Notes under the pieces: model-generated
The model's database searches: none
Told to the model about the DNA's origin: nothing
What the model saw: only the letters and a program-made list of their open reading frames with translations
DNA from: a virus
Taxonomy: Duplodnaviria; Heunggongvirae; Uroviricota; Caudoviricetes
Length of the DNA stretch: 5,125 nt
IMG/VR virus record: IMGVR_UViG_2617270949_000004
Direction: 5' to 3' (one strand)
Shown here: one piece after another, positions 1 through 5,098 of the stretch
Layout: each line of letters begins with the position of its first letter
Position numbering within the stretch: position 1 is the stretch's first letter
Program-made: the position numbers and the translations under genes

Positions 1-2399
1 ACGTATTTTGCCTGGTAACGGGCGTCATCAAGTGCATTATGGCGCTCACCTTCGAATGGAATAGCCGTTCTGGCATCGAAGTCTATGGCTTTCCCCAGCT
101 CAACGATTGTGCGTACATCGCGATCGTTGTAGTAACGCCACGGGCAGGGGATTCCCTGCCGTTCGTATGAACGGCGCAAAATCGTGTTGTCGAAGTTGGC
201 TCCATTTCCCCAGACCTGAACAAAAAATTCACCGGAGTTTTCGTCGATAAATTCCCGCAATTGTAACAGTGCATCATCTAACGGGATTTCATCGGTCATA
301 ATGGCAGATTGCGCTTCGCGTGATTGCTTAAGCCACCATTTAATGGTGTCCCGATCAATGACCCCGCCAGCAGTTTCCAGATCGATAGTCTTACTAAATT
401 CCGGTCCCATATCTCCGGTTTGCGGATCGAAAAATATTGCACCTATTGAGATGATCGGGGCATCAGGATTTTTTCCCATGGTTTCAAGGTCGATCATTAG
501 ATGGTCACACGTCCTGCTGGTGGATGTGATAATGTAATGATCGTTCACCGTAATTAAGGGATCTGCCGTCTCGCCAGTTTCACTATCGCTGGCGTGATCC
601 TGAGCGCTGCCAGCATTCTCCTTGTGTGGATGTTCAGCGCCTTCCATTTCCTTCGGATCATTTTCCTGAACTTCAACCTGATTCTCTTCATCGAATGTTT
701 CCTGGTATGTTGCGTCGCCCATCACCGCGCCACAATCAGGGCAGTTACCGCCGCCGGTCTGACCGCAGGCGGTGCAGACTTTTTCCACTTCCTGTTGCGC
801 CACTGGTTCAGGCTGTTTCGTTTCTGGCTCGTTTTGTTGCGTATTTGGGCTGTTTTGTTCCGCTTTCTGGTCGTTCTGTTCCGATTCTTGCTGGTTCTGG
901 TTTACAGAATCGCGGGTTTCAATCCCCTTTACCCATTTCGGATCATTCGGGTCGCTAATCCCTGCAACAAATTCTCCGCGAGAGGCAGCCAGTAATTTGT
1001 CTGCATCGACAGGATTTTTGGGCGGAATGTTTTTCCGGGCTTCATAGAGTTCTGCCCGCAGTTTCTGATATTTCGCATCAACAGAATTTACCTGTGACTG
1101 AGCATCCAGCGGCTGCGTGTCCTGATGATGTTCAGTTGCATCCGGTTCCACTGTTTCAGCCGTTGCCTGTTCATCTGCCATTGCGCAAGATGGTTGCAGT
1201 TTTTCTTCATCATCCTGTTTTTCTTCTTCTGTTACACGCTGCGGCATCGGGGCAGAGGAACGACCGCAGGCAATATCCACGATTTCTGGATCAGGGTTGG
1301 CATGATCAGTTTCAGTCAGTACTTTGTTAAGATATTCAGTGACGTGTGCGGGGATAACCTCGATCCCAATTGGTGCTTCTTTTACGGACGCAACCACGAT
1401 GGCGCGGGAATAATCCAGCCCGCCAGGCATGGTGATGAATTTGTCGCGGAAAACAGAAAAGGGCGGTTTATTTTCAGCGATAATTTCCTCGACACGTTTA
1501 GCGTGTGCCGGATGAAGGTTATAAATGTCCACGTCCATTGAACGAGCCAGTACGCCAGTGGCTACGTCGCGCGCCAGTGACGTCAGATCGTGAACGAAAC
1601 CTTCGCCGCGATCGGTGAGGTTCCCGCCGCCAGCATTAGCGCCGGAAGCCGTGCGCGTGATGCGTGAAACACGATTTCCTTTCATCCACTCTTTTGTCAG
1701 CAGACCGCGATCGGTGTAGTCTGCGTCCAGGTATGCTTCGAAAAAAGCAGTCATCAGCCCCAGGCTTGAATTGCCTGGATTAGGGAAAACTCTGTCAGTA
1801 TCACGCACCAGTTTGTGGAGATCGCGAATTTCCAGCGGGTCGAGCAGGCTGGTTTTGTGGGAAACAGCCAGGGCAGTAACAGCTGGTAGTTCTTCAGCTC
1901 GTGCAATGTGTAATGCCTGTAGTTCGTTGCGTGAAACGTGCGTTACCGGTTTTTCGCTGCCGTGTTGAGCAAGCCAGCGAATGGGCAGCTCCTGACCGGA
2001 AATCGGGAGTAGCATATTCTCCTCAATCTCCGTCATGTCTTCGCCATTAACATTGGTATTGTCAGTGCTGGCTGGCTTGTCCTGCGCAGAGGATGAGGGC
2101 GCGATAAATACCATTGTGATGCCATCTTCCCCGCCTTTTTCGTAACGGTTGCAGAATTCCGTATCAAATACGCCTTCTGGTGGAAGGTCATCAACAACGG
2201 GCAAATTGACGCGAACAGGTTTTTTAAAGTCATCTTCATCGTAGCCAGCATCGTCAATCGCAACAGCACCACGATAGATGGCAATGGATAATTTTTTCGC
2301 TTCAGCCCAGTAGAAACCGCCTTTAATACCGAGACGTTTTCTTACTTTGTCATTTTTTGCTTCGTAATACAGTGGGTAAACTTGTTTATCGGTGCTCAT
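1..2399 (-). CDS. recE: Exodeoxyribonuclease VIII-like (RecE-family) protein, 3' end beyond the window edge; about 800 codons visible. C-terminal part carries a CxxC-X9-CxxC zinc ribbon and a DnaQ-like DEDDh 3'-5' exonuclease domain
   Basis: Hand translation of the minus strand from ATG at 2399-2397 to position 3 gives a continuous frame with no stop. GAGG lies about 11 nt upstream of the ATG. Translation starts [36 protein letters not shown] and includes [44 protein letters not shown], then a Q/N/E-rich linker, [16 protein letters not shown] (about 730-774), then MIDLETMG (Exo I, about 480-497), VWGNGANFD (Exo II, about 190-215) and ERHNALDDA (Exo III, about 21-44). Sits immediately downstream of racC, as recE does in Rac. 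The ORF track omits it because it is incomplete in the window. The recE name rests on synteny and recalled N-terminal similarity, not on a search. Confidence 0.85.
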
Positions 2400-2469
2400 T
2401 GCTTTTTAACCTCAACTCAGATTAAAATTAATGCGAGTGATGAATAAATGTCCCAGGTTCTTCACTCAG

Positions 2470-2499
2470 GCCTGCACAGTGTGCAGGCTTTCTTTTTTT
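2470..2499 (+). terminator. Putative rho-independent terminator in plus-strand orientation, in the racC-recE intergenic region
   Basis: Perfect inverted repeat GCCTGCACA-G-TGTGCAGGC (2470-2488) followed directly by TTTCTTTTTTT (2489-2499). On the minus strand the same hairpin is preceded by an A-run and not followed by U's, so it works as a terminator only for plus-strand transcripts. Confidence 0.5.
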
Positions 2500-2774
2500 C
2501 AGATTTCACCTTTTAATTTCATTGCAATCAGAGTTGCCAGAAATTCGGCTTTTTTTTCTGCGGGCAGATTCTTTCCTATGTGCACCAGACACATTTTTTT
2601 AACACCATCGTTAAGTGTTTTAACGTTGCCTGTTGAACCGTCGATATCAACCACAGTGAATGGGGTTTCTTTATTTTCTGTTTTAATCACGTAGCCAATA
2701 CGTTTTCCCTCCAGGATAACTTCGAGCACAATGCCATCAGTAGTAACAATGGTGGCTTCATAACTGTTAATCAT
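2499..2774 (-). CDS. racC: RacC-like small prophage protein (91 aa)
   Basis: ORF starting at ATG 2774-2772 with AAGGAG about 7 nt upstream, stop TGA at 2501-2499. Product MINSYEATIVTTDGIVLEVILEGKRIGYVIKTENKETPFTVVDIDGSTGNVKTLNDGVKKMCLVHIGKNLPAEKKAEFLATLIAMKLKGEI. Length and position directly upstream of recE match Rac racC. The longer track ORF (start 2822) lacks an RBS and is not preferred. Confidence 0.8.
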   Translation of the reverse strand: MINSYEATIVTTDGIVLEVILEGKRIGYVIKTENKETPFTVVDIDGSTGNVKTLNDGVKKMCLVHIGKNLPAEKKAEFLATLIAMKLKGEI

Positions 2775-3146: not shown

Positions 3147-3701
3147 TTATTTTAAGGAAAGCAACTGCTCTACGGTCATATTTTTAATTGCGCTCCGGTT
3201 TACAAGAGTCCAGCCTTGTTGCTCCAGATAAAACAGGAAGGTATCCAGGGTGCAGACCATTGCGCCGTCAGGAACGGTTTCAGTGAATTTGATATTGCCG
3301 TGTTCGTCGAGACGGATAACCAGGGTGCGTCCGTCCCCGTGAATCATTTTGTCGGGAGACGGGGCGTTATTCTGGCGCAGTTCAGCTTCCATGCGGTCGA
3401 ACTCAGCAATGTATGCCTCTTTAAATGCAGCGGCTTTTTTGCCAGTGAAGCCCATCACCAGGAAAACGAAGCCGTTTTTGGTGATTTGGTACATTGGGAG
3501 TTTGCGCCCGGTTGAGTCGGTGTATTCGCTCGACACAAAATTGTGCTCAGTGAATTTTGCTGAACAGTCCAGATTGCGAATTTTATCCAACACTCGTTCG
3601 TGGCGTTTGCCAAAGAACTCGGCGATCGCAACAGACGTAGTGACAGCGCGACCATTTTCGATGGTTACGTCAGGGTGAGAAAGGGTAAGGATAGTAGCCA
3701 T
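3147..3701 (-). CDS. Phage regulatory protein of the Rha family (antirepressor-like), about 184 aa
   Basis: Minus-strand ORF with start at ATG 3701-3699, preceded by GGAGG 8 nt upstream; stop at 3149-3147. N-terminus MATILTLSHPDVTIENGRAVTTSVAIAEFFGKRHERVLDKIRNLDCSAKFTEHNFVSSEYTDSTGRKLPMYQITKNGFVFLVMGFTGKKAAAFKEAYIAEFDRME fits the Rha-domain pattern (FGKRHxxVLxxIRNL ... Y.D..GR....Y.IT..GF..LVMGFTG.KA..FK..YI..F). The in-frame upstream extension to 3998 crosses a terminator hairpin and is considered less likely. Confidence 0.7.
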   Translation of the reverse strand: MATILTLSHPDVTIENGRAVTTSVAIAEFFGKRHERVLDKIRNLDCSAKFTEHNFVSSEYTDSTGRKLPMYQITKNGFVFLVMGFTGKKAAAFKEAYIAEFDRMEAELRQNNAPSPDKMIHGDGRTLVIRLDEHGNIKFTETVPDGAMVCTLDTFLFYLEQQGWTLVNRSAIKNMTVEQLLSLK

Positions 3702-3865
3702 GATGGCAGCCTCCGCGATGAATTTGATTAACTCACCACCGAGGTTTTCCACGACCATAAGGGTGGTGAGACGTACAGGGGTGGAAATACCGGTCATCAC
3801 GGAACCCGGCCAGCCTTGCGGCTGCCCTGCACGCCCCACCATAATGCGAATGTGGCTGTGCTTAA

Positions 3866-3898
3866 CGCATAAAAAAACCGCCTGAGCGCGGTTATGCG
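3866..3898 (-). terminator. Putative rho-independent terminator in minus-strand orientation, upstream of the Rha gene
   Basis: Minus-strand RNA would read CGCAUAA-CCGC-GCUCAG-GCGG-UUUUUUU-AUGCG: a GC stem (AACCGC/GCGGUU, loop GCUCAG) followed by a run of 6-7 U. Outer arms CGCATAA/TTATGCG add a larger imperfect palindrome. Confidence 0.5.
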
Positions 3899-4063
3899 CC
3901 GTGAATGATTTCGGGTTTCCACGCCCGGCACCCGTTTTATGAGGTGCAGGTGCACTATAATTCCACCCGTTCTGGTTTTCAATAGCTACATTCAACATTT
4001 TCTCTACCTTTCATCACCGAAGTGAACTTTGTTGATGCGGTGCCTGGTGCCTCCAGGTGATGT

Positions 4064-4084
4064 TAACCAGTTAACAATTAACGC
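4064..4084. repeat. Three closely spaced (G/A)TTAAC repeats (GTTAAC-CA-GTTAAC-AA-TTAAC); candidate protein-binding/operator-like site
   Basis: Direct reading: gttaac at 4064-4069 and 4072-4077 (each self-complementary), then attaac at 4079-4084; preceded by a CCTGG-N5-CCAGG inverted repeat at 4046-4060. No function can be assigned from sequence alone. Confidence 0.25.
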
Positions 4085-4554
4085 CGGATACAGAGAATCC
4101 ACCCATAACACTGTTTTTGGTTTTAACTGTTCCGCGTGCGCTGAGCCGCATTCACCGCATCACAAAATTCACTTTAAAAAGGGCGGCAGAGCAGTCACGG
4201 AGTAAAACTGATACCGCCAAAAGTCACCAGAAAATTGATAACAGAGGGCGTTGCAGCGGAGTTGTTACTTAAGCGTATGGTCAACCTGACAACCCGGTGT
4301 CCTCAACGGGGGAAGGAATACCCCCGCCATACTTACCGCCGCGCCATTTCGCGGAGTGCCACAACCGGAAGCGCACGGTCGAACTAAATTTAACGACACC
4401 GTACAGAGAGACCAATTTCGCCGTGCGCTTTCGCGTTATGCCCTGACTTTTCAGGGACATATCCTTTCAGTAAACTGTCAGTGCCGGATGTTCACCCGTG
4501 TCCGGCGCACGCACTCCACCTGACCCGTGGAGAACTCCTTAATTACCAACCCTC

Positions 4555-4822: not shown

Positions 4823-5098
4823 GTGGCTTCTGTTTCTATCAGCTGTCCCTCCTGTTCAGCTACTGACGGGGTGGTGCGTAACGGCAAAAGCACTGCCGGA
4901 CATCAGCGCTATCTCTGCTCTCACTGCCGTAAAACATGGCAACTGCAGTTCACTTACACCGCTTCTCAACCCGGTACGCACCAGAAAATCATTGATATGG
5001 CCATGAATGGCGTTGGATGCCGGGCAACCGCCCGCATTATGGGCGTTGGCCTCAACACGATTTTCCGCCATTTAAAAAACTCAGGCCGCAGTCGGTAA
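4823..5098 (+). CDS. insA: IS1 InsA (transposition regulator, N-terminal part of the InsAB' transposase), 91 aa
   Basis: GTG start at 4823, stop TAA at 5096-5098. Product [91 protein letters not shown], with a zinc-finger CxxC...CxxC and a helix-turn-helix region. Confidence 0.95.

Follow-up and report, generated by a model that had tools for sequence, protein, structure and literature searches.

Rac-like prophages carry a short intergenic spacer between racC and a recE-type exonuclease gene, and we analysed the small-RNA gene that this spacer appears to contain. The stretch of DNA under study, a 5,125-nucleotide segment of a Caudoviricetes virus (IMG/VR record IMGVR_UViG_2617270949_000004), is referred to in full as the window. 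Its spacer occupies positions 2400-2498 (99 bp) between two minus-strand genes. On the right lies racC (2499-2774, 91 aa), whose product is 89% identical to K-12 RacC and whose end is 8 nt from the GC core of a hairpin, and on the left lies a RecE-like exonuclease gene (1-2399) that runs past the left end of the window and has its ATG at 2399-2397 and a GAGG Shine-Dalgarno sequence at 2412-2409. The Rac prophage of E. coli K-12 has the same gene order, with racC, a 101-bp spacer and recE. A 301-bp query covering window positions 2300-2600 matched at 100% a prophage of E. coli strain MLI121 that is integrated beside ompW.

A preliminary description, made from the letters of the window, had noted a plus-strand terminator in this spacer and proposed that a weak promoter upstream of it yields a transcript of about 60 nt, antisense to the mRNA of the two neighbouring genes. 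The gene positions bear out that both neighbours are on the minus strand. Taken together, the results below confirm the observation and support the antisense-RNA interpretation: the hairpin and T-tract are probably the Rho-independent terminator of a short plus-strand small-RNA gene within the early-left operon of Rac-like prophages.

A terminator oriented against its neighbouring genes

On the plus strand the spacer ends in AGGCCTGCAC-AGT-GTGCAGGCTT, after which a run of T extends as far as the stop codon of racC. The preliminary description had read a perfect 9-bp stem here, oriented for plus-strand termination. Both 9-mers (GCCTGCACA at 2470-2478 and TGTGCAGGC at 2480-2488) and the T-tract TTTCTTTTTTT (2489-2499), directly 3' of the second 9-mer, are present where they had been placed and in that orientation, but the 9-mers are only one base apart, so nine pairs cannot all form. 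The terminator stem instead has 8 perfect pairs, 6 of them G-C (GCCTGCAC/GTGCAGGC), closed by the 3-nt loop AGT and lengthened to 10 pairs at its base by one G.U and one A-U pair. As delimited by the fold, shuffle and covariation analyses, the complete hairpin AGGCCUGCAC-AGU-GUGCAGGCUU spans 2468-2490 on the plus strand, and in isolation it has a folding energy of -15.5 kcal/mol. On the plus strand the racC stop triplet reads TCA (2499-2501), and its first base is also the last T of the T-tract.

The anatomy is that of an intrinsic terminator, with a G+C-rich stem in the usual range of about 5-14 pairs, a short loop and the U-rich UUUCUUUUUUU straight after the stem on the plus strand. Sites of terminator quality, defined by 8 or more perfect pairs, 5 or more G-C pairs and 6 or more T within the next 8 bases, are rare by chance: when the window was shuffled 1000 times with its dinucleotides preserved, such a site arose in 1 shuffle, both strands counted (mean 0.003 per shuffle). 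A terminator scan found no second terminator-like site on the plus strand, which makes this hairpin the only one in the window. Its rarity in shuffled sequence, together with the anatomy of the stem, indicates that the hairpin is real and no chance pattern. We conclude that it is a transcription terminator acting on the strand opposite its neighbouring genes.

Conservation of the hairpin in two spacer alleles

The K-12 and window spacers can be aligned at both ends only, and their middles are largely different. K-12 nevertheless has a hairpin at the homologous place, TAGCCTGCG-CCATA-CGCAGGCTA followed by TTTCTTT, whose sequence is unlike that of the window. We gathered 133 spacer copies, mostly from IMG/VR viral contigs, and reduced them to 29 distinct sequences. 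These form two alleles, a window-like type A (carried for instance by strains MLI121 and AR_0069) and a K-12-like type B.

An alignment of 23 distinct sequences over the 10-pair stem was used to examine covariation. Of the stem cells, 97% were paired, and three stem pairs had changed on both sides (A-U to U-A, A-U to G-C and C-G to U-A). The observed covariation score was reached by none of 500 shuffles, and shifting the 3' partner columns by 1-3 positions lowered pairing to 18-44%. Absence of the hairpin from related prophages had been named in advance as a result that would speak against the proposal; the hairpin is kept, with compensatory changes. The loops vary widely on retained stems (AGT, ACT, GTT, ACA, TGA and GTC; CCATA, TATGG, TCATA and GCATA). 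In all alleles the plus side of the hairpin is T-rich (TTTCTTTTTT, TATTTCTTT, CTTTTTCCCATT) and the minus side is never U-rich, showing that terminator polarity is conserved, beyond a mere palindrome.

Some loops have been exchanged for their own reverse complement on unchanged stems, AGT for ACT within type A and CCATA for TATGG within type B (window 2478-2480; positions 6470-6474 of L001, the locus that carries the K-12 copy; loci L012, L029 and others). To judge from the sequences, such exchanges mark strand switching at the DNA level with the hairpin as template.

Of 5426 complete E. coli genomes, 268 contained allele A and 1594 contained allele B. Rac-like prophages occur in about one in three complete genomes of this species, K-12 and O157 among them. 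A RacC-based scan of one genome per species returned only Escherichia, Shigella and two contigs that are labelled as other taxa and carry E. coli-type sequence. A phage collection gave 6 spacer matches. One of them, PP818812.1 (deposited as 'Actinobacillus phage vB_Apl-pPE4'), has a racC-exonuclease spacer with 95.7% identity to E. coli sequence; it seems to be a prophage from E. coli or to have been assigned to the wrong host.

A plus-strand RNA ends at the terminator in E. coli

Published transcript data for E. coli cover the homologous site. Term-seq of strain MG1655 lists a plus-strand 3' end at NC_000913.3 position 1,417,486, classed as 'antisense' to racC (Adams et al. 2021, PMC7815308, Supplementary file 1). 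Its average reads were 185,664 in the first sheet (LB medium, optical density (OD) 0.4); a later sheet, presumably for LB at OD 2.0, gives 146,140, and the same coordinate appears a third time in the file. Position 1,417,486 is the U of ...CGCAGGCUAUUUCU, 7 nt beyond the GC core of the K-12 hairpin. At the K-12 homologue the RNA 3' end thus falls inside the U-tract in vivo (1,417,486 = GCAGGCUAUUUCU), as intrinsic termination demands. For comparison, plus-strand 3' ends in the same sheet had 66,698 reads for SokC, 103,354 for a 3' end internal to ftsI (at 92,658) and 6,222 for SgrS (PMC7815308); FtsO is the name given there to an ftsI-derived RNA. Among the Term-seq 3' ends listed, 1,417,486 is the sole coordinate that begins with 14174. 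The table of bicyclomycin-sensitive Rho termination regions, searched as text, likewise has no coordinate with these leading digits, an absence that is weak evidence (PMC7815308).

A second data set connects the spacer with Hfq. In O157 strain Sakai, cross-linking and analysis of cDNA (CRAC) with Hfq ranked an intergenic region, printed as 'recC...racC', 64th among Hfq-crosslinked regions (Tree et al. 2014, PMC4104026, Table S1B). The reads in its two columns across five samples were 0|2017, 0|247, 0|1374, 0|5561 and 0|0, that is, on one strand only and in 4 of 5 samples. Sakai has a single recE-racC pair so named; it lies in prophage Sp10 in the K-12 orientation, and its spacer is identical to that of K-12. 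We infer that the populated column is the plus strand, because the rows for the plus-strand genes fnrS, gadY, chiX, sucD and pheA have their reads in that column and the rows for the minus-strand genes csrA, omrA/B and infC-thrS have theirs in the other. With the strand assigned in this way, the Sakai reads place Hfq on the RNA of a type B allele in vivo.

The preliminary description had made a detectable plus-strand transcript its other test. Such a transcript is found by Term-seq at the homologous K-12 site, and the Sakai CRAC reads agree with it under the strand assignment above. An abundant plus-strand RNA, made in ordinary uninduced lysogens, ends at the K-12 terminator.

A promoter-like element and two stem-loops fill the spacer

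The hexamers that the preliminary description had read as a sigma-70-like promoter lie where it put them, with the 18-bp spacing it gave. The -35-like TTGCTT (plus strand, 2399-2404; TTGTTT in most alleles) matches 3 of 6 consensus bases and overlaps the exonuclease start codon on the other strand, and the -10-like TAAAAT (plus strand, 2423-2428) matches 5 of 6. Within 400 nt upstream of the terminator, TTGYTT-18-TAAAAT is the only sigma-70-like pair common to the window (2399-2428) and K-12 (L001 6387-6416).

The element and the terminator occur together. Both GATTAAAAT and the terminator were present in 80 of 80 racC-anchored viral loci, which had been retrieved through the RacC protein alone, in a search independent of GATTAAAAT. 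The roughly 6 bases just downstream of GATTAAAAT vary between alleles. Each of the two spacer alleles occurs joined to either of two unrelated exonuclease N-termini, and hence nothing upstream of the spacer is shared. In prophages where the exonuclease gene instead follows ydfD, kil or another small gene, homology ends inside the hexamer, and TAAAAT, stem-loop 1 (described below) and the terminator are all missing. TAAAAT, stem-loop 1 and the terminator form a module that travels with racC.

Counting about 7 nt from TAAAAT, plus-strand transcription is predicted to begin near window position 2435 and, by analogy with the K-12 Term-seq end, to stop at about 2496-2497, giving a putative small RNA of about 62-63 nt. 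The corresponding K-12 RNA would be 64 nt (L001 6424-6487). Three parts make up the predicted RNA, namely stem-loop 1, the stem-loop of the terminator and a U-tail. Folding places stem-loop 1 (GAGUGA.GAAU / GUUC.UCACUC, with an 11-nt loop) at 2435-2467 on the plus strand. Both alleles fold into two directly adjacent stem-loops (-26.6 and -24.7 kcal/mol), with a fold z-score of about -4.3 in each (window segment 2433-2499). Stem-loop 1 sits in the same place in the two alleles and differs in sequence; a manual structural alignment shows a common AGUG/CACU core and an outermost pair that changes from G-C to C-G.

So laid out, the predicted gene exactly fills the spacer, from a -35-like hexamer on the exonuclease start codon to a U-tail that touches the racC stop codon. 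Its RNA would lie wholly inside the racC-exonuclease intercistronic region and is complementary to the mRNA of the opposite strand. A small protein encoded in the spacer was considered and rejected: an 87-aa frame from the ATG at 2431 crosses the terminator, the sole frame in K-12 is unrelated and has 9 codons, and no open reading frame (ORF) is conserved.

Evidence that weighs against a small-RNA gene

Several points count against reading the spacer as a small-RNA gene. The experimental data come from the K-12/Sakai allele (type B) and not from the type A allele of the window. The start, the use of the promoter and the length of about 60 nt are predictions. The supplements of Cappable-seq and single-molecule real-time (SMRT) Cappable-seq list no coordinate close to the site, whichever version of the genome is used, although these files are possibly incomplete and their silence does not argue for absence. 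The supplementary tables of a small-RNA prediction paper based on RIL-seq (RNA interaction by ligation and sequencing) have no entry named with racC.

The sequence comparisons carry reservations of their own. The promoter match is only 8/12, below the threshold of the scan and at a level common in AT-rich DNA, so that the call is as weak as the preliminary description had judged it. Conservation of the promoter is confounded by its left half, which doubles as the ribosome-binding region of the exonuclease gene. The covariation counts represent few independent events, essentially two lineages. Single-sided stem changes that leave a G.U pair favour the plus strand by 5 independent cases to 1 for the minus strand, a bias that is not significant (one-sided p about 0.11), and in type B a G.U pair has been gained on the minus strand at the loop-closing position. 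As to the action on the mRNA, a start near 2435 would leave about 23 nt between the end of the duplex and the Shine-Dalgarno sequence downstream of it, which makes direct occlusion of the ribosome-binding site unlikely.

Alternative explanations for the hairpin and its RNA

The alternative that survives best accepts the small RNA and treats its antisense position as incidental. The RNA would then act in trans and, depending on Hfq, regulate or sponge RNAs of the host or the phage in the manner of AgvB and AsxR. Hfq crosslinking, which puts the spacer within the top 100 intergenic regions of O157 (PMC4104026), is in keeping with such a role, as is expression in uninduced lysogens, where the target in cis is repressed. 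The U-tail divides the alleles, being long in the type A terminator, as a trans-acting RNA would have it, and short in type B (UAUUUCU). The two alleles also have little single-stranded sequence in common and no conserved seed is evident, and the RIL-seq-based tables lack an entry named racC. We regard action in trans as rather unlikely.

The hairpin could also be a terminator and nothing else, keeping long antisense transcripts, whether started at spurious promoters in the AT-rich recE gene or entering from the att side, out of the prophage regulatory region. The Term-seq RNA would in that case be the stable 3' remnant of such transcripts. A 5' end that is only predicted leaves room for this, the published table classes the 3' end simply as 'antisense' (PMC7815308), and K-12 recE does contain other weak promoter-like sites farther upstream. 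None of these sites is common to the allele of the window, however, and the spacer alone is shared. The nearest preceding plus-strand 3' end listed is in ttcA, with none inside recE in either sheet, and for a prophage region that is silenced the read depth is very high. A bare terminator would moreover need neither a conserved stem-loop 1 nor an invariant TAAAAT, and it would not account for Hfq binding. On balance this explanation is unlikely.

An element of the minus-strand mRNA is a weaker proposal still. The hairpin starts 8-11 nt past the racC stop codon and minus-strand RNA forms the same stems at similar energy, so that it might protect a 3' end, guide processing or attenuate weakly after racC and thereby set the racC:recE ratio, with the T-tract incidental. 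Yet no allele has a U-tract on the minus side, and all are T-rich on the plus side. The mapped 3' end is on the plus strand with no other listed 3' end beginning 14174, and the CRAC column assigned to the minus strand has zero reads. Such an element is compatible with a small RNA but leaves that RNA unexplained. We consider it quite improbable as the main function of the hairpin. More generally, a role in blocking read-through or in stabilising the minus-strand mRNA does not explain an abundant, Hfq-bound plus-strand RNA, and would be possible as a secondary role. A bidirectional terminator common to racC and the plus-strand RNA is scarcely credible: the two do converge on one hairpin, an arrangement described for bidirectional terminators, but in the window and in K-12 there is neither a U-tract on the minus side, where the RNA after the hairpin reads CUGAGUGAAG or UGAACAGUGU, nor an A-tract upstream on the plus strand, and the downstream exonuclease gene of the same operon must be transcribed through the hairpin.

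Possible action on the early-left transcript

If the spacer encodes a small antisense RNA, the most direct target is the transcript it faces, and we propose tentatively that the RNA acts in cis on the early-left mRNA, a suggestion that we hold to be possible and short of probable. In this model the RNA, fully complementary to the racC-exonuclease intercistronic RNA, would pair with it through loop-loop contacts, with Hfq helping. Its two stem-loops would face complementary stem-loops of the early-left transcript, an arrangement from which loop-loop pairing usually starts. RNase III would act on the duplex, which would be cut or destabilised as with lambda OOP and cII, and the downstream recombination genes would in this way be separated or destabilised. 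The predicted promoter overlaps the exonuclease ribosome-binding site and start codon, and its head-on firing could add transcriptional interference. The net effect would be to damp leaky expression of exonuclease and recombinase in the lysogen.

Mutations termed sbcA are a class that activates recET, and gene tables give sbcA as a synonym of racC and of recE alike; a link between sbcA and the spacer RNA is speculation. In MG1655, recET has been described as completely repressed (PMC3945230). A constitutive, Hfq-bound antisense RNA might act as a post-transcriptional lock on the RecET module and so contribute to the recET silence that sbcA overcomes, an idea that we offer as doubtful.

Relation to known phage RNAs

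The closest parallel in layout is the OOP RNA of phage lambda, a 77-nt transcript of promoter pO that is antisense to the 3' end of cII and serves as the model for duplex-directed RNase III cleavage. Like OOP, the spacer RNA is short, comprises two stem-loops with a strong intrinsic terminator, runs against a lambdoid early operon and is made in the lysogen, with a promoter of its own (predicted here). OOP differs in belonging to the early-right region at cII-O, whereas the spacer RNA is early-left, between racC and the exonuclease gene; the two have no sequence or Rfam relation, and the spacer RNA overlaps no coding sequence.

The same Rac prophage encodes RalA, the antitoxin of the type I RalR/RalA pair (RF02694), which is also a plus-strand small RNA in the minus-strand early-left region and antisense to its neighbours. 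RalA is Hfq-dependent. It is 179 nt long, however, and lies 3.7 kb away, where it overlaps both rcbA and the last part of ralR. Its partner is a toxin mRNA, and its sequence is unrelated; we know of no toxin beside the spacer RNA. Phage P22 Sar and P1/P7 C4 resemble the spacer RNA as small phage antisense RNAs that control an adjacent immunity or early-region gene, a control that is proposed here for the spacer RNA. Sar and C4 mask the ribosome-binding site of ant or icd, unlike the spacer RNA, which with its predicted start ends about 23 nt before the Shine-Dalgarno sequence.

AgvB and AsxR of O157 (51-60 nt; PMC4104026) are likewise very short, Hfq-crosslinked and prophage-encoded, with an intrinsic terminator and a fixed lambdoid position convergent with a neighbouring gene, and the spacer RNA appears in the same CRAC data set (PMC4104026). 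They lie downstream of PR' at a 'moron' site and share about 42 nt of conserved 3' sequence, which the spacer RNA lacks, and their sponge function relies on a free 5' seed, of which none is evident here.

Searches of Rfam 15 gave no match up to E = 1 over the spacer, in the window or in K-12, and the same searches recovered RalA, C4, isrK and DicF as controls. The K-12 RefSeq gene table has no gene in the spacer. In other E. coli genomes the features annotated at spacer matches were racC, hypothetical proteins or nothing. A full-text literature search found no paper that discusses an RNA here and no name for one; Table S2 of Tree et al. 2014 was outside this search, and the spacer RNA may be one of the 63 unnamed 'EcOnc' candidates of that study. 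The RNA is best described as an uncharacterised addition to the antisense and Hfq-bound small RNAs of prophages, whose terminator was already visible in public 3' end data.

Other features of the window and of K-12 Rac

The neighbour that the preliminary description had called recE deserves that name only in part; its racC call stands, on the identity given above. The exonuclease gene product is 79% identical to K-12 RecE residues 40-592 (570 aligned positions) and contains PF06630 (Exonuc_VIII) at residues 53-189, which corresponds to the N-terminal and middle part of RecE. Its C-terminus is a different nuclease domain, the Rv2179c-like 3'-5' exonuclease PF16473 (residues 633-799, E = 1.5e-64), and not the 5'-3' nuclease domain of RecE. 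By its domain content the gene is a chimera. In strain MLI121 the exonuclease gene has no recT after it.

An Rfam search found a cluster of phage regulatory RNAs on the minus strand at window 3759-4232. It comprises C4 antisense RNA (3759-3846, 81.9 bits), isrK (3871-3947, 67.7 bits) and DicF (4181-4232, 75.8 bits), with sub-threshold minus-strand matches to the c4 a1b1 target (3908-3960) and STnc100 (4028-4169). These matches mark 3759-4232 as an antirepressor control region, of the P1/P7 immI or Gifsy kind, upstream of a Rha-family gene. The minus-strand 'Rha family' ORF (3147-3998, 283 aa; annotated with the same length in MLI121) overlaps the C4 and isrK matches, and its Pfam Phage_pRha domain starts only at about residue 120. 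The start of this ORF has probably been over-called, which would account for the N-terminal extension.

At the right end of the window, a plus-strand ORF (4823-5098), recognised by its sequence, is presumably InsA of IS1; it is absent from the annotation of the otherwise matching MLI121 prophage, so the window derives from another strain that is related to MLI121. In K-12 Rac, the annotated small RNA KilS (L001 7411-7466, minus strand) matches the DicF model at 39.1 bits against a threshold of 48, which suggests that KilS is a diverged DicF-type RNA.

Significance

K-12 is the best-annotated bacterium, yet neither its RefSeq gene table nor Rfam lists the spacer RNA, even though its 3' end outreads those of SokC and SgrS and the 3' end internal to ftsI in the same Term-seq table. 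The RNA lies directly upstream of recE and recT, which underlie the RecET pathway and one form of recombineering, and whose silence in wild-type cells is usually credited to operon repression alone. Should the RNA prove functionless, the locus would still be a clean annotation gap, a small gene that fills an intergenic spacer from promoter to terminator. If the proposed antisense brake is real, it would add a second layer of control on a prophage recombinase and provide another prophage small RNA that engages Hfq in pathogens.

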